NCBI GenBank assembly: GCA_000004695.1
Contig: CM000152.2
Coordinates: forward strand, 704,001 to 768,000
DNA: 64,000 nt
Direction of reading: 5' to 3'
Origin: Dictyostelium discoideum
Lineage: Eukaryota
How positions within the stretch are numbered: position 1 is the first letter of the stretch; the number at the start of each line of letters is the position of its first letter. Below the pieces are notes generated by a model. That model ran no database searches, was not told the DNA's origin, and saw nothing but the letters and a program-made list of their open reading frames with translations. The translations under genes and the position numbers were made by a program. Of this stretch, positions 5,486 through 41,780 are shown piece after piece.

Positions 5486-5520
<35 letters not shown>

Positions 5521-16381: not shown

Positions 16382-17905
16382 GCAATATAATAATAATAAT
16401 CAATATAACCAATATAGTCAACAACCACCACCACCACCACAACAACAAATCCAACCACCAACACCACAACCAATTAAAAAAATCACTACACCAATTGCAC
16501 CTCTAACTCCCCCACCACAAACAGCAGCTAAAAAAGAAAAACCATCCAAAAGTTTAACATCTTATGTACAAAGAGCTTTTAAAGCAGCAGAGTCTCAAGA
16601 ACAATTAAAAGAAATGCAAGCATTAATTAAAGAAAAAATTAGTAAAGGTCATTCAAATATCGATTGGGATAATGAACCATTACCAACATTGTAAGTATAT
16701 AATTACAAATCGATATAATCATTTCTACAAATTAAATCTTTATTCTTTACTGACATTTTTTTTTTTTTTTTTTTAATATTAATTTTAGAATTAAAACGGT
16801 AAATATAAAAAGTAATGAAAAAATTTGGCAAGAAGATATGGTTCCACTTTCATTAAAAAATAAAAATAATAATAATAATAATATTAATAGTAAACAAGAT
16901 AAAAAAAGAAAAGCAAATGCACAATCAACAGTTTTTGATTCACCAAATAGTCAAAATAAAAGGTTACAAAGATTTGGAGGTAATAGTAATTGTCAGTATG
17001 CTCCAGGTACTGGTAGTTATTCAATTGAAAAATTTGGACAAGGTAAAGATTTACCACCATTCGATAGTAGTACAGAATTGGATTGGGACACATTGACAAT
17101 CAAAGGTACATGTACAGATTTAGAGAAACCATACCTTAGATTGACATCAGCACCAGATCCATCAACTGTAAGACCAGAGGAAGTTTTGAAAAAGACATTG
17201 GTATTCTTAAAAAAGAAATGGTTAGAGAAAGAGGATTACATCTATACTTGTGAACAATTTAGAAGTATTAGACAAGATCTCACCGTACAAAGAATAAAAA
17301 ATCGTTTCACCGTTGAAGTCTATGAAACTCATGCTCGTCTTGCATTGGAGAATCAAGACTTGGGTCAATTTAATCAATGTCAAACTCAATTGTTCCAACT
17401 CTACAAACAGCCAGGTCTTGCCTCATCAAGTATGAGTGAATTCTATGCCTATCGTCTATTGTATAACATCTACCAAGACAACAGTACCGATATCACTAAA
17501 ACCCTCACCGACATTGATAAGGATAAGTCGGGTGTTGGAAAGTTTGCCCATGTTCAACATGCACTCAAAGTTAGAACCGCCATTTACAATAACAACTATT
17601 GCTCCTACTTTAGACTTTGCAAAGATCCACCCAATATGGCCATATATTTGTTGGATAAGATCACACCACGTATACGTGTTCAAGCATTAAGAATGGTTTT
17701 GAAAGCCTATCGTCCAAACATTTTAATCTCTCAAATTATGGAATTAGGTTTCAAAAATGAAAAAGAGGCTCAAGAGTTTGTTGACAAAAACAAATTAATT
17801 TGGATCAATCCAAAACTTAAAAAAGAAATTGATGCAAAAGCCTCCTCTTCAATTCCTATTGAAATGCCAGTCGCTGTTGTTCATGCTGTTGATGGTCGTT
17901 GGTAA
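15660..17905 (+). CDS. SAC3/GANP-domain protein (LENG8/Thp3-like) with a ~340-aa N-terminal Asn/Gln-rich low-complexity region; exons 15660..16690, 16789..17905
   Basis: Exon 2 carries the SAC3/GANP hallmark CEQFRSIRQDLTVQRIKNRFTVEVYETHARLALENQDLGQFNQCQTQL. GTAAGT donor at 16691 (phase 2) and AATTTTAG acceptor ending 16788. Exon 1 is prion-like, with (CAA)n encoding more than 30 consecutive Gln. Confidence 0.75.
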
Positions 17906-18600
17906 ATCAATTTAAGAGACGACCTTTTTAATCATCTCTCTCTAAATTCTTCTCCAACCCCTTTCAACTGTGTGAGCAAACTTTTATGGCGTCTATAAAC
18001 AAACCAATTTCAAATCAAGCATATATTTATGCATACCAAATTATTAACATTACCAGTTCTCACACACCAAACACTAAACTCTTTTTTCCTCCCCCCTCAT
18101 CTCAACTAATTGTATAAATGAATAATACTACTAACCCCTTTCTCTCTTTTCTTTCTTTCTTTCTTTTTTTTTTTTTTTAATTTTTATTTTCTTTTAGCAT
18201 ATTTATTAAATATATTTCCTTTCGAACTAAATTTCAAATTCAATCAGAATTTTATTTACCAATTTGTAATTAAAAATAGTCAAAATAAATGAAGAATAAA
18301 AAAAAAAAAAAAATAATAATGACAATAATTAATAATAATAATAACATTTAAATTAAATAAAGAAAATAAACTCTTAGTTGGGTTTATAAAGTAATTTTTT
18401 TTTTTTGTTTTTTTTTAATTTTTTTATTCTTCATGTATAAGAAACTATGAATAGATTTTATTTTATTGTTAAAAAATAAAATAAATAAAAAAGGTAACAG
18501 CTATTAAATCTTAAAAAAAACCTTTTTATTTCTTTTTTTTTATTTTTTTTATTTCTTTTTTTTTATTTTTTTTTTTATTTCTTTTTTTTTTTTAAAATTT

Positions 18601-20035
18601 TTAATGAACACCATTTAAAGTTGGTGAAAAATTATTTGTTTGTGGTTTTAAAGGATTAACAATAGGTACATTAATATGTTGGATTGCCATTGCAACAATA
18701 CTTGTCATATTAACTTCAGGACCGAAAACTTTGATTGGGATATGTAATTTATGACCAATTTCTCTCATATGTTGTAAACCCGATTGATAATTTGGACCAC
18801 CTCTTCTAACGAAAATGGAAAGATTTGATTTAATGATATCATCATGATACTCTTTAATTGCTCTAATGATACCTTTGAAAGTGGCAGCCACATCAGTAAA
18901 ATTAGCAATACCACCACCAATTAATAATGCTCTTGGTCTAGAATCAGGATTTCTGGTTGCCAATGAAATTAAAGTGCATGCATATTTATGAGTATCCTCT
19001 TCATTTGGATCACCGGAATATTCACCATAATTTCCAAGCTCATTACCAAAACCTAAATCAGCAACAGTGTCAGCATAGATAACAGAGGCACCACCTCCGG
19101 CAACCATTGCCCATATTCTTCCTTTTGGATTTAATAAAGTTAATTTCAAGGATGCACCTGTTTTTTCATCAATTTCATTTACATAGGTTTCCTCTGGATA
19201 TAAACTTCTACCAAATGGTTGTGGAAATTGAACTGGTTCGCCATCAACTAACCAACGACCACCACATTTAAATGATGCACATTCATCAACTTCACCTCTT
19301 GCATCTAATGGATAAGGTTTACCTTCTGCATCTAATGTAAATGGATTCATTTCAATAAAATGGAATGATAAATCTATTATGAATTTTTAAAAAAATAAAA
19401 TAAAATAAATTAATAAATTATTAAAATATTAAAATATTAATTATTAATTATTTACCATTAAATAATTTATAAACATTTCTAATAAAATCAATAACATATT
19501 CTCTATTTTGTACAGAAGAATCAATTATTGTATGTAAATCAAATTTATCAATTGATTCACCATATGGAATTTCAATTGAGGAGACTTTATCCCAATTTTC
19601 TTCGATTTCCATACCACCACAATTTGAAAATGAAATTCTATTTGATTCTCTTTCTGCAGTGATTGAAAGGTAGTATTCTTCGGTATGTGGTAAAAATGGC
19701 TCAACAATGAAATGAGTAACCAATCCTGATTTACCTCCAATTTCAACTGGTTTATTTATTTTCTCTTTAATGAATTTATCGGCTTCTTCCAAAGTTGCAT
19801 TTAATAAAACTAAACCATTTTTACCTCTTTTTCCAAATAACATATCTGGTTTAACTACGAGTTTGGAATTGTTGACCCATATATTATCAATTGATTTCGA
19901 TAATTCAATAAGAGTTGGTGTTGTTGGTGAAACTTGAATCATCTTTAAATTTAATTTAGATCCATTGCATGATAATGCAAAATTATTTTTAATAATATAT
20001 TTTGTTGAATATTCTCTTAATTTCTTTCTTGCCAT
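18601..20035 (-). CDS. ATP-citrate lyase, N-terminal subunit (ATP-grasp / succinyl-CoA-synthetase-beta-like half); exons 19456..20035, 18601..19373
   Basis: Colinear with the human ACLY N-terminal ~425 aa: [83 protein letters not shown]. Ends at a stop (..NGVH*). Phase-1 GTAAAT donor at 19455 and ATAG acceptor ending 19374. Confidence 0.85.
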
Positions 20036-20147
20036 TTTTTTTTTTTTTATTATTTTAAAAATTTGAAACTATTGAAATTAATTAAACAAAATTTACCACT
20101 AATAAAAATTATTTATATATATTTTATGTGTATACAAATATATATTT

Positions 20148-20192
<45 letters not shown>

Positions 20193-20462
20193 TATAAAAA
20201 ATATTAAAAAATAAATTAAATAAAAAAAAATAATTAAAATTAAAAAAAAAAAAAAAAAAAAGAAAAAGAAAAAATATAGTAATAATGGCGTTAATAATTA
20301 TGAAATTTAATTTTTAATTTTTTTTTGGATAAAAATAAAACAAAATAAAATAAAAAAAAATTATTATTTATTATTAATTATCTATGGAAGGGAATATAAA
20401 AATGATAAATTACTATCGTTTTTGTGTGTATGTTGTATTGTGGGAAAAAAAAATAAATAAAA

Positions 20463-20501
<39 letters not shown>

Positions 20502-20636
20502 AAAAGGTGGTAAATTGGTAGATTAAGAATTTAGATCCAATATAATTATATAATTTTATTATTACCTTTTTTCTTTAATTTTAAATTTTATATACTAATA
20601 ATAATATTATATTGGCCTTATGAATTTTAAAAAATA

Positions 20637-20671
<35 letters not shown>

Positions 20672-22195
20672 CAGGTTAATTGATTCGTTTGAGTTTAAAA
20701 AAAAAAAAATAAAAGTTGAAATTATCCATAATTTGACTATTATAAGTGAAGTTATTTAATGTGTTTTAAAATTGAAAAGGTATGGAGTTATATTTTTTTT
20801 AAATTTTTTTTTTTTTCCAACTTTCAATACCAAATTTGTAGGAAATTTTAAAAAAGGAAAGAAAAAATAAAATAAAAAAACCAAAAATTTGAAAAGAAAA
20901 AAAAAAAAAAAAAAAAAAGGTGTGGTTGTGTGTATTTTTGATTTTTTTTATTTTATTTTAATTATTTTTTTAATTTTTGTTTTTTTTTTTTTTTTTTTTT
21001 TTCCCTTATTAGATAAAAACTAATCCAAATTGATATCTTTATTTAATAAGCAAAACAAGTCATTTATTTGTGTGCAATAAAATAATTTTTTAAATAATTT
21101 TTAATTTAAATTTAAAAAAATAAACAGTTTTAAAATTTTTTATTTTTTTTTTTTTTTTATTTTTTTAATTTTAGAATTATATATTTTTTTTAAACACATT
21201 TAAATTATTTACAATTAAAAAAAATAGGTAAGTTTTATACATACAAAAATTTAATACTATGAAAAAAAAAAAAAAAAAAAAAAAACAATTTTATGTGTTT
21301 TTTTTTTTTTTTAAAAATTAAATTTACATACACACTTTTTTTTTTTTTTTTTTTTTTAATTAAATAACAGTCAACAATCTAAAATATTTTTTTATTTTCC
21401 CAAACATTTTTTTTATTTTTTTTTTTTTTATTTTTTTATTTTTTTTTTTTAAAAAATTTAAATTTTTTTTTTTTTCAATATCAAAAGTGTCTGTTCACAT
21501 AAAAAAAAAAGATTTTTTTAAACAAATTTGCAAATATTTTTAGGGGAAAAATTAAAATCACCAATTTCCCATCTAAATCAGAAAATAAAAAAAACTATTC
21601 CTCAATAATTTAATTTATTTTTTAAAAAAAAACCCTATGTATGTCATAGCAAAATTATATTAAAAAAAATAAAAAATTTAAAAAAAAAATGAATAATAAA
21701 ATTTTGGAATTAATAAGGCTCCCTTCTATTTTTTTTTATTTAATATTTTCATTTTTTTTATTTTTTTAAAACAAATATTTTTTTTTTATTATTTTTTTTT
21801 TTTTTTTTTATAAATCGCAGTCACTGTTTTATTTTAAAATTAATTTAAATTTATAAAAACAAATATTTTTATTTATTTATTTTAATCATTGATAACCTAA
21901 TAATTATTTAATTGTGAGTCATAACACAATAAAAATATCTATATAAAAATAAAATAAAAAAAAATATTCTCCATTCCTTTTTTTTTTTTTTATTATTTTT
22001 TATTTTTTTTTTTTTCAAAAATATTATCTGTACATAATATAATTATAAAATTCTAACAAATAATTTATTATTAAAAAAAAAAAAAAAAAAAAAATTAGTT
22101 TTTAATTTATTTAGAAAAAAAAAAATAATAAATTATTTGTTAAATAAATAATTTTATTATTTTAATAATATATAAAAAAATATATATATAAAGAA
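20036..22195. promoter_or_regulatory. 2.2-kb AT-rich intergenic region shared by the divergently transcribed ACL subunit genes (putative bidirectional promoter)
   Basis: Both ATGs (20035 on minus, 22196 on plus) face this region. It has poly-A/T tracts and no ORFs, and an (AAT)13 microsatellite at 20151..20190. Confidence 0.45.
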
Positions 22196-24064
22196 ATGAC
22201 AAATAGTAATTTTAATCATGGTAATCATGGTAGTAATTTACCAGCAAGGTTATTTACAAAACAATCACAGGCATTAATTTATAATTATAAAGAAGCAGCA
22301 GTCCAAAGAATGTTAGATTTTGATAATGTTTCACAAAGGGATACACCATCAGTGGGTGGGTTAATTCATCCAGGATCCGATGGTGGTATGTATAAAGCAT
22401 TCTTTGGATTTAAAGAGTTGGTAATACCAGTTTATAATTCAGTATCAGAAGCATGTCAACAATGTCCAAATGCAGATGTATTTTTAAATTTTGCATCACA
22501 TCGTTCAGCTTACCAATCATCGTTATTGGCATTAAGAGAACCATCGATTCAAACCGTTGTTATCATTGCAGAGGGTGTACCAGAGAATGAAGCACGTTCA
22601 TTGATATCAATTGCAAAGAAATTGGGTAAGGTTATAATCGGACCTGCAACTGTTGGTGGCATTCAAGCTGGTTGTTTCAAAATTGGTAATACCGCAGGTA
22701 CAATCGTTTATATTATGGCTTGTAAATTGTATAGATCAGGTTCAGTTGGCTTCGTTTCAAAGAGTGGTGGTTTGTCCAATGAAATGTATAATGTACTCTC
22801 AAGATGTACCGATGGTATCTATGAAGGTATCGCAATTGGAGGTGATGCTTTCCCTGGCTCAACACTCACAGACCATGCCCTACGTTATGAGAAATTGCCA
22901 GAGGTTCAAATGATTGTTATATTGGGTGAGTTGGGTGGATGGGACGAGTATGGAATTGTGGAGGCATTGAAAAAGGGTGAAATTACAAAACCAATTTGTG
23001 CATGGGTATCTGGTACTGTTGCAAAGATTTTCCCAACCGAAGTACAATTTGGTCATGCAGGTGCAAAATCTGGTGGTGAAACTGAATCTGCCGATGCAAA
23101 GAATAAAGCTTTACGTGAGGCTGGTGCAGTTGTACCAACTTCTTTTGAAGATTTCTCAAATGTTATTGCCGCTACCTATGCCAAACTTCAATCAAAGGGT
23201 TTGGTTAAACCAGTTGAAGAACCAACACCACCTGAATTACCATTAGATTTCAAGACTGCAGTTAAGGCTGGTAAAGTTAGAAAGCCAACATCAATTATCT
23301 CTACAATTTGTGATGATCGTGGTGATGAACTTTCCTATGCAGGTGTACCAATTAGTGAAGTATGTAAAGAGCAATATAATATGGGTGATGTGATTGGCTT
23401 ACTTTGGTTCAAGAGAAAGTTACCACCATACGCTTCCAAGTTCTTTGAAATGTGTTTGAAACTAGTTGCCGATCATGGTCCATGTGTTAGTGGTGCTCAT
23501 AATACAATCGTTGCTGCTCGTGCTGGTAAGGATTTAGTATCAAGTCTTGTTTCAGGTTTATTAACAATTGGACCACGTTTTGGTGGTGCCATCGATGATA
23601 GTGCTCGTGTATTCCAAGATGCAGTCGATAACAATTTACAACCATCACAATTTGTTGAAGGTATGAAATCAAAGGGTAAAAGAATTCCAGGTATTGGTCA
23701 TTTAATTAAATCTGCCGATGAAATCGATAAAAGAGTAGTATTATTAAAAGATTATGCTTTCACTCATTTCTCATCAACAAAATATTTAGAATACGCATTG
23801 GAAGTTGAAAAATATACCCTTCAAAAAGCAAATAATTTAATTTTAAATGTTGATGGTTGTATTGGTGTATTATTTTTAGATTTATTACATTCATCCGGTT
23901 TATTCACTCAACATGAAATTAAAGAAATTATAGATGTTGGTTATTTAAATGGTTTCTTTATTGTTGGTAGAAGTGTTGGTTTAATCGGTCACGCATTAGA
24001 TCAACGTAGAAATAAACAAGGACTTTATAGACACCAAGCTGATGATGTTCATTATGCCCTTTAA
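22196..24064 (+). CDS. ATP-citrate lyase, C-terminal subunit (CoA-binding + catalytic His + citrate-synthase-like domain); single exon
   Basis: 622-aa ORF colinear with human ACLY residues ~490-1100: GPATVGGIQAGCFKIGNT, the catalytic-His motif EVQFGHAGA, LLWFKRKLP, VADHGPCVSGAHNTIVAARAGKDLVSSL, GIGHLIKS, RSVGLIGHALDQRRNKQGLYRH. Confidence 0.85.
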   Translation: MTNSNFNHGNHGSNLPARLFTKQSQALIYNYKEAAVQRMLDFDNVSQRDTPSVGGLIHPGSDGGMYKAFFGFKELVIPVYNSVSEACQQCPNADVFLNFASHRSAYQSSLLALREPSIQTVVIIAEGVPENEARSLISIAKKLGKVIIGPATVGGIQAGCFKIGNTAGTIVYIMACKLYRSGSVGFVSKSGGLSNEMYNVLSRCTDGIYEGIAIGGDAFPGSTLTDHALRYEKLPEVQMIVILGELGGWDEYGIVEALKKGEITKPICAWVSGTVAKIFPTEVQFGHAGAKSGGETESADAKNKALREAGAVVPTSFEDFSNVIAATYAKLQSKGLVKPVEEPTPPELPLDFKTAVKAGKVRKPTSIISTICDDRGDELSYAGVPISEVCKEQYNMGDVIGLLWFKRKLPPYASKFFEMCLKLVADHGPCVSGAHNTIVAARAGKDLVSSLVSGLLTIGPRFGGAIDDSARVFQDAVDNNLQPSQFVEGMKSKGKRIPGIGHLIKSADEIDKRVVLLKDYAFTHFSSTKYLEYALEVEKYTLQKANNLILNVDGCIGVLFLDLLHSSGLFTQHEIKEIIDVGYLNGFFIVGRSVGLIGHALDQRRNKQGLYRHQADDVHYAL

Positions 24065-25622
24065 AATTTTAATAAATATAAATATAAAAATAAAAATAAA
24101 ATAAAATAAAATAAAACCATTTTTTAATAATTTTATTTCATTTTATAATTATAATCCTTTTAAAAAGGTTTTTTTTTCATTTTATTAATTACAAAACTCA
24201 ACTATAAAATATGGAAGAGGCTCACCAAATTTCCAACAATTTATTTCCTCAAAACCATATCAATTTTCAAATCATTTTGTTTTTTTTTAACTTAAGTATA
24301 AATAAAATAAATATATAAATAAAGGAATAAATATATAAATAAAGGAATAATTATAAATATAAAAAAAAAAATAAAAAAAAAAATAAAAAAAAAAACCAAA
24401 ACAAAACGTAACCAAATTATATTATTTTTATTTTTATTTTTATTTTAATTTTTATTTTAAAATACTTTATTTCCTTTTTAGTAATTTTTTTGGTGGCTAT
24501 TTGGCTTGGTACCCACTAGTGTTTAATTAAAATAAACACAATCTTTAATTATATTGTTTTGTCAAATTGACTATCCATTTTTTAAATGATTTAATCTTTT
24601 TTTTTTTAAAGTATAAAAAAAAAACACAAAATGGTGATTGGGTTAAATCAAATTAAAAAAAAAAAAATTATACTAAATATATCTAATAATGGGGTAATTT
24701 TTAGTATTTATTGTATTTTAATTTGGGTGATTGTGGGTTTAGATTTATTTTAATTTTTTTTCTCATTTTATTTTATTTCATTTTATTTTATTTTATTTTA
24801 TTTTATTTTTTTCTAAACAATTAAAAACAAATTAATAAATTGCATACTTGAATAAAATACCTGGTAAAAATAAAAATGTAAATGACAAATTAAAATTTAT
24901 AATTAATTTTAAAATTTGTAAGTAAATCATAAATTCTTTAAGAAATGATTTTACCAATTAATATAGAATGGTCACGATGTAATCTATGGAGTGTAATTAT
25001 TAATATTTTTATTTTTTTTTTAAAAAAAAAATGCCAAATTAATTTACTAACTTGTTATTTGAAATTAAATTGTTATTATGAATTTTAGTGATTTTTATCC
25101 TTCTAATTTTTTTTATTTGGTGTTGACTGCTATATACCTAGTTTAATGAATACATCTAATAAACTTCCAAAATAGGTAATATCCAAATAAATAAAACTTA
25201 TTGGTATTGTTGTTGAATTTAACAATAATAACTATTAATTATTTCTGATCCTGTATACCTACTACCTATAGTATAAAAGTGGGGATAAAAATTGTGTTTA
25301 AAATATAAAGTATTTACATATTTATAAAAATATTTTAATAAATTAATAAGAGAAAATTTAAATCAATTATAAATTATTTGAATTTTCTTTAAAAGATATT
25401 TTTATTTTATAATTATTTTAAATCGTAATAATAATAATAAAAATAAAAAAATCTATTTAAGGGAAAAAAAAAAAAAAATATTTTTTTTATAATTCAATTA
25501 ATTATTAAATAAAAATAAAAAATAAAAAATAAAAAATAAAAATATATAAAATTATTTTATTATTTTTTTTTTTCTGTACTAATAATCAACTTTATTCAAT
25601 TAAAAAATAAATAAATAAAAAA

Positions 25623-39091: not shown

Positions 39092-40234
39092 TTATATGAT
39101 TGAACATTTCTTCTTTTTACCAATTGGAGTGAAACCAGTTGGTTTAACAACATGAGCATTGTAAGTGGAGTTGTTATTTGGTTGAATACCACCTTGTAAC
39201 TTTTTAATTTCACTAGCCATAATCATAAATGCTTGTTCTACATTTGCTGATGATTTGGCAGATGTTTCCAAAAATGGAATACCAACAGAGTCGGCATATT
39301 CTCTGGCGGTACTGGTATCGACGATCTTCTTTTCAATGAGATCACATTTGTTACCAACGAGTAAACGAGTTACACTATCACATGCATATCTTTGAATTTC
39401 TTGCATCCATTGTTTGACATTGTTGAAACTGACATGATCAGTGACATCATACACAACGATGATACCATGTGCACCACGATAATATGATGATGTAATTGTT
39501 CTGAATCTTTCTTGTCCTGCAGTATCCCAGATTTGTAATTTAATGATCTTACCATCTAAATTAATTGTACGAATTTTAAAATCAACACCAATTGTTGAAA
39601 TATAACTCTCTGTATATGTATCATCCTGTATTATTATTATTATTATTATTTTTGATTTTTTTGAATTTTTTTTTTTTTTTTTTGATTTTTTTTGAAATTT
39701 TTTTTTTTTTTTTTTTCAAATAAAAGTTTCAAAAAAAAAAAAAAATTATGAAAAAATTGGTGTGGGGAGGAAAAAAAAATTAATATGTGAGGATAAACGT
39801 CTTTTTTTTTTGCTTTTTCTTTTAATAAATTTAATAAATACTTACTGCAAATCTAAGTAATAAACATGATTTACCTACACCACTATCACCGATTAAAAGT
39901 AATTTGAAAAGATAATCGCTAAATTAAATAAAATAATTTTTTTTTTAAAAAAAAAAATAATAATAATAATTTGGTTAGAATACAATTAAATTATATAAAG
40001 ATGATGTGATTTAACTATGAGGAGTTGTTGTAAATACAAACAAAAACCTTGTAATCACAATGAATTAAAGTTGTGAAGGCAACTTAATTGTTTGCAATGT
40101 GTGTGTGTGATTTTTATTTTTTTTATTTTATTTATCTTTTATTTTTTTTTTTTTTTTTAATAAAAAAAGAAAAAAAAAATTAAAGAAAATAAAATAAAAT
40201 ATTAATAAAACTATACTTACTATTCTGGATTCAT
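39092..40234 (-). CDS. Rab1-family small GTPase; exons 40221..40234, 39846..39918, 39092..39625
   Basis: The spliced product MNPEY|[24 protein letters not shown]|[63 protein letters not shown]...LVGNKCDL...ETSAK is almost identical to Rab1. The first exon is 14 nt (ATG AAT CCA GAA TA | GTAAGT). The C-terminus ends KKKKCSII, not the usual CC or CXC. Confidence 0.85.
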
Positions 40235-40564
40235 TTTATCTGTTTTATTTTATATTTTTTTTTTCTTTTTTTTTTTTTTAATAAATTTTTTATTTTATGT
40301 GTTAATTTTTATTATGATAAAAAAAAAAAAAAATTGGTTTTTAATAATTTTTTTATTATTTTATTTATTGTGTTGTTGGACTATTACTACAAGTTTATAT
40401 AAATATGGGTGTGAGTGAGCGAATTTTAATATATTAATATATTTGGAAAATTTTATATATATATATTTTATATGGTGTTGAGAAAAAAAAAAAAATAAAA
40501 AAAAAATTAAAAAAAAATGAAAAAAAAAAAAAAAAAATCAAAAAAAAAAAAATTTTCAAAAAAA

Positions 40565-40626
<62 letters not shown>

Positions 40627-40751
40627 AAAAAAAAATTAAGTTGTTTTGATGGAGCCACATAAAAAAATTATTAAAAATATTTGGTGCTGATCAAAGATAT
40701 ACCACTTTTTATTATTATCATTTTTTTATTATTTTTTTTTTTTTATAAAAA

Positions 40752-40793
<42 letters not shown>

Positions 40794-40823
40794 TTCTTCA
40801 TTATTGCATATATTAAGATTAAA

Positions 40824-40859
<36 letters not shown>

Positions 40860-41187
40860 ATAATCATCCAATTTCCAAAAAAAAAAAAAAAAAAAAAAAT
40901 AAAAAAAAAAAAAAAAATAAAAATAAAAATAAATAAAAAAAAAAAAAGAGTAAAGAAAAAAAGAATATGTTACCAGAATATTTATTAATGACGAAGATGA
41001 TGATTTTCCATCTTACCTTGTGGTTAAATTTTTTTTTTCTTAAACTTTTTTTTTTTTTTTTTTTTTATTTTTTTAATAACAACAATATATTTTTTATTCA
41101 GATATATTATTTATTGATTAGAGTAAAAGAAATTGAATTTTAATAATCTTTTTTTTATAAAATATATATATTTTTTTTTAAATATAA

Positions 41188-41223
<36 letters not shown>

Positions 41224-41780
41224 AAAAAATTCTTTGAATGGTTCACTGAAATAACGAATCACAGAAAAAAAAATTTTGAAATTGAAAAAGAGATATGTGT
41301 TTGGATATTTTTTTTAATAACCAAATTAAATTTATTAAAAATTAAAAAAAAAAAAAAAAAAAATTAAACAAAACAAAAGAATAACATGTTATGGTTTCTT
41401 GTTTTTTTTTTCTTTATTTTTTTTCTTTGTTGCCAAAAATTGATAGTTTTTTTTTTTTTTTTTTTGGTAATTGTAATTAAGATATTTATTCCATTTTTTA
41501 AAATATAAAAAATTTAAATTAATAAAAAAAAAAAAAAAATAGTTGGTCGGTTTTATTTTTTTCTTGGTTACAATTCGTATGTCTTAACCTTTCCTCCTCT
41601 TCCTTTAAATTAAAGAATTAATGAGCTGGCCGTTTTGGTATTATTATTTTTAAAATAAAAATTCAAAAATAAAAATAAAAGAAAAAATTCTATGTTTATA
41701 CAATCAAAAATAAAATAAAATTTATTATTAATAGCAAATAATGTATTTAAAAAATTTAATAATTTTCATTGTTTTCAACC

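Follow-up and report, generated by a model that had tools for sequence, protein, structure and literature searches.

ATP-citrate lyase exists either as a single fused polypeptide (ACLY) or as a heteromer of two subunits (ACLA and ACLB). The occurrence of both forms across eukaryotes was treated by Gawryluk, Eme and Roger (2015, Mol Phylogenet Evol), as cited in PMC5851275 and PMC11976288. According to the latter source, ACLA/B and ACLY were both probably present in the last eukaryotic common ancestor (LECA), and eukaryotic ACLA/B branch with DPANN archaea, with ACLY placed elsewhere. The present analysis concerns a window of 64,000 nucleotides from Dictyostelium discoideum (assembly GCA_000004695.1, contig CM000152.2, forward-strand positions 704,001 to 768,000; all coordinates below are those of the window unless another locus is named). 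Between positions 18601 and 24064 it carries aclyA, for the small subunit on the minus strand, and aclyB, for the large subunit on the plus strand, in head-to-head orientation. Taken as a whole, with its evolution and regulation, this region very probably represents two already-catalogued D. discoideum genes of a heteromeric, two-subunit ATP-citrate lyase. The two-gene enzyme of Dictyostelium is already known: the genes are annotated, were named aclyA (DDB0205389) and aclyB (DDB0205386) by Sillo et al. 2008 (PMC2443395) and figure in published evolutionary surveys. Mildly new are the assignment of each half to the two-subunit clade and the distribution of head-to-head linkage within Dictyostelia, together with the likely independence of this linkage from the ascomycete layout.

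Heteromeric ATP-citrate lyase of Arabidopsis is credited to Fatland et al. 2002, as cited in PMC11954720. In plants, the subunits comprise ~423 amino acids (aa) with ATP-grasp and citrate-binding parts (ACLA) and ~608 aa with CoA-ligase and citryl-CoA lyase parts (ACLB). They resemble the Dictyostelium proteins in layout and identity (54-55% for A and 64-66% for B) and fall in the same clade of neighbour-joining trees. The plant subunit genes are multi-copy and not known to be linked, in contrast to the single, head-to-head copies of Dictyostelium. Compared with the plant subunits, dictyostelid ACLA also has a C-terminal tail of 10-40 aa and ACLB ~14 extra N-terminal residues. In archaea (Methanosaeta concilii, PDB 6hxi; Micrarchaeota), the two-subunit architecture and the catalytic residues are again alike, and the M. 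concilii proteins are the best matches among solved structures. In prokaryotes, aclA and aclB run in one direction and overlap, as part of an operon that also holds aconitase and isocitrate dehydrogenase genes. This is exemplified by a Candidatus Micrarchaeota member, one of the nearest prokaryotic relatives, with one co-directional acn-icd-aclA-aclB cluster (locus L008, 1843-8082, contig WJIU01000024.1), where aclA and aclB overlap by 8 nt. The Dictyostelium genes, on the contrary, are divergent, lie 2.16 kb apart, and one of them contains a spliceosomal intron.

Ascomycetes such as Sordaria macrospora and Aspergillus nidulans likewise have two subunit genes, acl1/acl2 (aclA/aclB), which are reportedly adjacent and divergently transcribed. 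The ascomycete pair reportedly derives from secondary fission of a fused gene, whereas the pair of Dictyostelium falls, in neighbour-joining trees, in the ancestral two-subunit clade. If both statements hold, the two head-to-head layouts would be independent. In the fused ACLY (human, PDB 6poe and others; Paraphysoderma, Rhodotorula), domains and catalytic residues are collinear with those of aclyA plus aclyB. The Dictyostelium halves differ from it by the absence of a covalent link and of the ~50-residue regulatory linker (human ~440-489), and the fused form occupies a separate neighbour-joining clade. A reading made earlier from the sequence alone (the sequence-only reading) had attributed two subunits to fungi in general, which is too broad, since Rhodotorula and Paraphysoderma (1161 aa) have the fused form.

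Two genes for the subunits of one enzyme

The small-subunit gene consists of two exons on the minus strand. Exon 1 (19456..20035) begins with the ATG at 20035..20033, covers codons 1-193 plus the first base of codon 194 and encodes the N-terminal part of the ATP-grasp module. At its 3' boundary the sequence reads ...TTATTTAATG up to 19456 and GTAAATAA beyond it. The highly AT-rich intron (19374..19455, 82 nt, minus strand, GTAAAT...AATAG) is of the GT..AG type and in phase 1. Exon 2 (18601..19373, minus strand) opens with AT TTA TCA TTC CAT and runs from the last two bases of codon 194 to codon 450 and the stop, encoding the last part of the ATP-grasp module together with the citrate-binding domain. 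It closes with ...TLNGVH and a TAA codon (18603..18601), directly followed by an A/T-rich tail. The spliced product of 450 aa is identical, in a residue-by-residue comparison, to XP_642300.1 (Q54YA2, DDB_G0278341) of D. discoideum AX4, which is called a 'hypothetical protein' at NCBI and ATP citrate synthase at UniRef; the NCBI label 'hypothetical protein DDB_G0278341' could be corrected. Two Pfam families are matched over their whole profiles, namely PF24948 Citrate_synth_N (residues 2-234, E = 1e-62) and PF16114 Citrate_bind (residues 249-425, E = 1.2e-84). In phmmer searches of the PDB, the product aligns over its full length with M. concilii ACLY-A (E = 1.6e-125) and, through residues 19-444, with human ACLY 18-439 (E = 5e-111).

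The intron is shared by several dictyostelids. In D. purpureum aclA it has the same position (nt 580) and phase, with a length of 71 nt (locus L002, 8581-8651), and tblastn alignments of aclA are also interrupted at this site in Polysphondylium violaceum, Cavenderia fasciculata, Heterostelium album and Acytostelium subglobosum. The aclA gene of Tieghemostelium lacteum is intronless (locus L006, 8001-9350).

The large-subunit gene aclyB is a single exon on the plus strand (22196..24064, stop at 24062..24064) that encodes 622 aa with CoA-binding/CoA-ligase and citryl-CoA lyase regions. Its product is identical to XP_642302.1 (Q54YA0, DDB_G0278345), the AX4 'Probable ATP-citrate synthase'. Pfam assigns Ligase_CoA (PF00549) and Citrate_synt (PF00285), the latter being the C-terminal citrate-synthase-like domain. 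In the PDB searches the best match is M. concilii ACLY-B (E = 7.6e-230), and residues 17-622 align with human ACLY 490-1095 (E = 7.6e-223). For both subunits these alignments contain few gaps and exceed chance expectation by a wide margin. The constant offset of 473 in the human alignment equates His287, in the motif FGHAGA (residues 285-290), with the phospho-histidine His760 of human ACLY; its codon in QFGHAGA is at 23054..23056 (plus strand). By the same offset, Asp553 in LNVDGCIG (codon 23852..23854, plus strand) corresponds to human Asp1026. The counterpart of Asp553 is mutated to Ala in M. concilii entry 6znw (6znw_B nvagcig versus 6hxi_B nvdgcig). Every coordinate and feature named in the sequence-only reading, i.e. 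the two exons, the intron, the stop after NGVH, the ATG at 22196 and FGHAGA, is present as described. Its view of two separate, intact and divergent subunit genes in an amoebozoan is confirmed by the exact AX4 protein matches, and the alignment to human ACLY that it proposed gives residues 18-439 for aclyA and 490-1095 for aclyB.

Together, aclyA and aclyB hold all domains of ATP-citrate lyase and its catalytic His and Asp. By analogy with known enzymes, the AclyA product would bind ATP and citrate through an ATP-grasp nucleotide-binding module and a citrate-binding domain, which form the part resembling the beta subunit of succinyl-CoA synthetase. The AclyB product contributes the domains for CoA binding and the phospho-histidine (H287), and at its C-terminus the citryl-CoA lyase domain (D553). 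The latter domain is the tetrameric core of the enzyme in solved structures. By homology to plant ACLA/ACLB and to the archaeal and human structures, AclyA and AclyB would form an A4B4 enzyme with a tetramer of C-terminal lyase domains at its base. His287 of AclyB would be transiently phosphorylated, citryl-CoA would be formed and Asp553 would aid its cleavage. In the predicted overall reaction, citrate reacts with ATP and CoA to give cytosolic acetyl-CoA and oxaloacetate, with acetyl-CoA presumably serving lipid synthesis. A literature search found no biochemical report on the Dictyostelium enzyme.

Both genes are under strong purifying selection and are functional rather than remnants. In comparison with the D. 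purpureum orthologues (Nei-Gojobori method), the ratio of non-synonymous to synonymous substitution rates (dN/dS) is 0.073 for aclyA and 0.077 for aclyB, with dS ~0.9 in each case. Each product is a polypeptide in its own right: the small subunit ends at a genuine stop, the large one has a start of its own, and the database proteins have identical ends. No open reading frame (ORF) of ~1100 aa joins the two halves, which are encoded by two genes on opposite strands. Two eventualities raised by the sequence-only reading find no support: a fused read-through transcript of aclyA and aclyB is impossible because transcription of the two genes runs in opposite directions, away from each other, and pseudogene halves are contradicted by intact frames and a dN/dS of ~0.07. 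As to expression, both genes were repressed 16-20-fold during phagocytosis or growth on bacteria, and the array was validated by Northern blots with an aclyB probe (Sillo et al. 2008, PMC2443395). Co-regulation of aclyA and aclyB is thus documented by published data.

Relationship to two-subunit and fused forms

Homology searches give a uniform picture. The best 120 homologues of aclyA are all of split length, with no A-B fused-length protein among them. Likewise, no A-B fusion occurs among the best 120 homologues of aclyB, where the sole entries of ~1000 aa are AclB-AclB tandem duplications. After D. discoideum itself come other dictyostelids (71-79% identity for A and 82-88% for B), then the protosporangiid Amoebozoa Ceratiomyxa and Clastostelium, followed by environmental sequences of transcript length. 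Within Amoebozoa, for which the sequence-only reading had suggested a survey, split genes occur in other dictyostelids and in both protosporangiids. Next are Micrarchaeota homologues with 55-59% (A) and 65-68% (B) identity, and after them those of plants and glaucophytes (54-55% and 64-66%).

Phylogenetic placement was examined in distance-based neighbour-joining trees with 200 bootstraps, built from a modest sample without confirmed ascomycete sequences. Fused sequences for comparison were taken from a HMMER search of 1.84 billion cluster representatives, which yielded the 1161-aa Paraphysoderma (fungal) protein and animal fragments; the fused set in the trees consists of a fungus and a 1113-aa protein, with two animals added in the A tree. 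In the A tree, dictyostelid AclA groups with Ceratiomyxa and seven further sequences (195/200), and this group joins plants, the glaucophyte and Micrarchaeota, along with four other representatives of split length (171/200). The clade of fused, opisthokont-type sequences (195/200) is outside this two-subunit clade. In the B tree, a two-subunit clade is found in 200/200 replicates, with the fused opisthokont-type sequences outside. In corrected distance, D. discoideum is closer to plants and Micrarchaeota (0.55-0.66 for A and 0.42-0.49 for B) than to fused forms (~1.0 and 0.67). Because of the placement in the trees and these distances, the histories of the two halves appear congruent and both halves of the ancestral two-subunit kind. 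Collectively, the sequences suggest that both genes are of a vertically retained two-subunit type and not pieces of a re-split fused gene. The sequence-only reading had held that the split arrangement bears on when the fusion arose. This does not follow: the aclyA/aclyB locus does not date the fusion, because both halves sit in the two-subunit clade (171/200 for A and 200/200 for B), and in the published view both forms were already in LECA (PMC11976288).

Two other explanations for the split have to be weighed against vertical retention. A fused ACLY-type gene could have been broken in the dictyostelid lineage, as proposed for Ascomycota, with the head-to-head layout as a by-product. In favor of such an event, the HMMER alignment of aclyA reaches into the first part of the human linker (query residue 444 against human residue 439), and the junction ends of aclyA and aclyB bear short extra tails relative to the plant subunits. 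Both halves, however, cluster with the two-subunit sequences of plants, the glaucophyte and Micrarchaeota and lie away from the fused opisthokont-type ones, and for each half the distances to plants and Micrarchaeota are the shorter ones, so that on sequence grounds secondary fission is unlikely and, as an account of this locus, very improbable. The other explanation regards the halves as decaying remnants, with a functional fused gene elsewhere in the genome. Nothing in its favor was found, and it is contradicted by intact reading frames and conserved catalytic residues, by the low dN/dS of both genes, by the probing of aclyB on Northern blots and the strong regulation of both genes on microarrays (Sillo et al. 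2008, PMC2443395), and by orthologous split genes in at least eight other dictyostelids and two protosporangiids. This possibility is strongly disfavoured and deserves next to no credence.

The tail of AclA itself is a variable feature. Dictyostelid and related environmental AclA proteins end in a low-complexity C-terminal extension of 10-40 aa (encoded at 18601-18680 in aclyA), often closing with an NG(V/I)H-like motif and missing from plant, glaucophyte and Ceratiomyxa ACLA. HMMER places it loosely on the start of the human ACLY linker, and the tail is unconserved. It was considered as a linker remnant, a proposal rejected in view of its low complexity and its variability even within dictyostelids.

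Among the homologues of aclyB is a family of ~1004-1040 aa (P0144-P0156), with members from metagenomes, Logan and NCBI. The three members inspected (P0144, P0148 and P0149) are tandem AclB-AclB proteins devoid of an ATP-grasp half, in which a full AclB is followed by a second copy beginning at about residue 155. In P0144, copy 1 keeps FGHAGA and has a decayed lyase motif (ADRDPQASGAAN); in copy 2 the His loop is decayed (FGHMLVPDEGG) and ADHGPAVSGTHN is intact. From these sequences, the pattern of decay looks like complementary subfunctionalisation. In the neighbour-joining tree, copy 1 clusters with fused-type sequences.

Linkage, spacer and promoters

Head-to-head linkage recurs in other dictyostelids. 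A second D. discoideum assembly has it with a spacer of 2146 bp and no called gene between, D. purpureum with 2309 bp and no annotated gene between, T. lacteum with 630 bp, and P. violaceum with ~2495 bp (aclB start at 5505 on locus L007, from tblastn). Genes flanking the pair differ among these four Dictyosteliales species. In C. fasciculata (L003), H. album (L004) and A. subglobosum (L005), no aclB is present within 8 kb of aclA, and in C. fasciculata and A. subglobosum it is on a different scaffold. Linkage is confined to the sampled Dictyosteliales and absent from the sampled Acytosteliales. Thus, aclA/aclB linkage is not required, because the genes are unlinked in three other dictyostelids. 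In P. violaceum, the aclB gene model (L007, 3576-6967, 636 aa) seems over-extended at its 5' end: by tblastn, residue 2 of D. discoideum AclB falls at L007 5502, which puts the ATG at ~5505. At 26%, the GC content of the spacer in P. violaceum is unusually high for this group of genomes; GC islands are numerous, and there is no convincing ORF.

In the window, the spacer between the two ATG codons (20036..22195) measures 2160 bp and has a GC content of 11.3%, against 22.7% for the window overall. It makes up the longest AT-rich tract of the window (2239 bp below 20% GC). The second-longest (39602-41551, 1950 bp, 13.5% GC) is apparently non-coding. An ORF list extending down to 20 aa has none above 45 aa in the spacer, and all are of low complexity. 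Tandem and dispersed repeats in it are homopolymers or AT-rich simple sequence only. ARAGORN found no tRNA in the 64-kb window, and no Rfam family matches positions 18000-25000 at E up to 1.

Strand composition divides the spacer in two. On the plus strand, A-runs and an excess of G prevail from ~20150 to 20920, and T-runs and an excess of C from ~20935 to 22030. The switch (20897..20945) consists of poly-A, then GGTGTGGTTGTGTGTA, then T-rich sequence, and both AT and GC skew change sign at ~20925, leaving ~0.9 kb on the side of aclyA and ~1.3 kb on that of aclyB. As a result, the upstream coding strand of each gene is T- and C-rich over much of its length, with local reversals. A comparable AT-skew switch is found ~0.8 kb from aclA in D. 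purpureum, and a noisier one at ~1.0-1.2 kb in P. violaceum. The switch may mark the place where a region belonging to aclyA (~0.9 kb) meets one belonging to aclyB (~1.3 kb). As a general promoter signature, AT skew was rejected, with mixed signs upstream of 14 long ORFs of the window; therefore, the spacer switch cannot be taken for a rule-based promoter boundary and serves as description, not as proof of two promoters.

Candidate elements in the spacer are few. Footprinting of the spacer against its counterparts in D. purpureum, P. violaceum and T. lacteum (blastn-short) returned no high-scoring segment pair with five or more G/C, except for one 11-mer at E = 1. Mirrored words common to both spacer halves exceed block-shuffled controls; they were rejected as shared elements because they equal the opposite-orientation control and are CA-repeat-like. 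There remains a CCAAT-like word of consensus ACCAATTT(A/C)CCA, with one copy upstream of each gene in mirrored orientation. The first copy, TACCAATTTACCA, is at 20508..20520 on the minus strand, toward aclyA and ~470 bp upstream of it; the second, CACCAATTTCCCA, is at 21559..21571 on the plus strand, toward aclyB and ~625 bp upstream. Both are low-confidence candidate cis-elements. With up to two mismatches, the word has seven matches in the window for 2.1 expected, a weak statistic. P. violaceum has TCACCAATTTTCCCA, one base longer and in the same orientation relative to aclB as in D. discoideum, and the word itself was not found in the other species. As a cis-element it is a weak lead only.

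By sequence, no gene intervenes between the two head-to-head genes on their opposite strands, although the AX4 numbering hints at an extra model. Numbers skip one between the acly genes in three series (DDB_G0278341, _343, _345; EAL68343, 44, 45; XP_642300, 01, 02), so that AX4 may have another gene model in or near the spacer, as judged from numbering only. A further small gene or non-coding RNA in the spacer, by which it would not be shared by the acly genes, has nevertheless only a slim chance. Against it speak the lack of any ORF above 45 aa, a GC content of 11% throughout, and the negative tRNA and Rfam (E up to 1) searches. In addition, no gene is called there in the independent D. discoideum or D. 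purpureum annotation, no called protein on record corresponds to the 45-aa spacer ORF, and DDB_G0278343 was not found in a literature search.

More weight must be given to the nature of the promoter. The sequence-only reading had concluded that there is co-regulation through one bidirectional promoter; the co-regulation stands (PMC2443395), and the single promoter does not follow from the data, in view of the 2160-bp spacer, its composition switch, the lack of a detectable shared or conserved element and the unlinked genes of three dictyostelids. Conventional bidirectional spacers are below ~1 kb between transcription start sites (TSSs), and the ATG-to-ATG distances of 2160, 2309 and ~2495 bp exceed this bound. 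Only T. lacteum, with 630 bp, is within it; as all these figures are ATG-to-ATG, TSS-to-TSS distances could be smaller. The 2.16-kb, compositionally asymmetric spacer would comprise a pair of promoter regions placed back to back, perhaps with distal elements in common, rather than one compact bidirectional promoter. A single shared promoter or regulatory module, with the head-to-head order kept by selection for stoichiometric co-expression, is doubtful. It would agree with the joint 16-20-fold repression of both genes on bacteria (PMC2443395), with the persistence of the order in four Dictyosteliales despite differing flanking genes, with the short spacer of T. lacteum and with the mirrored CCAAT-like word found once upstream of each gene. 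It is less easily reconciled with a spacer of 2160 bp that is the longest AT-rich tract of the 64-kb window. The usual intergenic length in the Dictyostelium genome is reportedly about one-third of that spacer, which also counts against a shared promoter. The flip in strand composition near 20925, as if two oriented halves abut, tells in the same direction, as do the lack of any block other than low-complexity sequence in common with the spacers of D. purpureum, P. violaceum and T. lacteum, mirrored words that are no commoner than opposite-orientation ones, and the separation of the genes in C. fasciculata, A. subglobosum and H. album.

A broader proposal, advanced tentatively and on balance unlikely, views head-to-head linkage as a lineage-specific character of Dictyosteliales, independent of the ascomycete acl1/acl2 pair and built from the other ancestral form (a two-subunit enzyme versus a re-split fused one). 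Gene order would then be convergent, and the long spacer of Dictyosteliaceae (2.2-2.5 kb) would be a shared nutrient-responsive control region.

Several points weigh against interpreting the locus as a vertically inherited two-subunit pair with back-to-back promoters. Without the four extra representatives, the core two-subunit clade is recovered in only 88/200 replicates, and the trees are of the neighbour-joining type, with a modest sample devoid of confirmed ascomycetes. The evidence on an additional fused copy extends to the best 120 homologues of each subunit, which is less than the whole AX4 genome. A4B4 assembly and the reaction of the Dictyostelium proteins are deduced from homology, and the two-promoter arrangement from the length and composition of the spacer. 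Finally, T. lacteum works with a 630-bp spacer, compatible with a compact shared promoter.

Significance and neighbouring features

The locus is unremarkable, and its contribution to the history of the fused enzyme of animals is small. At most, it is a small example of how genes of heteromeric enzymes become and stay linked, and its 2.16-kb spacer is a defined fragment in which the nutrient-dependent repression of Dictyostelium genes could be dissected. On the other side of aclyA, a 355-aa ORF with an N-terminal poly-Asn run (16838-17905, plus strand) is tail-to-tail with the gene. Another D. discoideum annotation has a 715-aa model at the position adjacent to aclA and convergent with it, and the 355-aa ORF is probably one exon of this larger gene.

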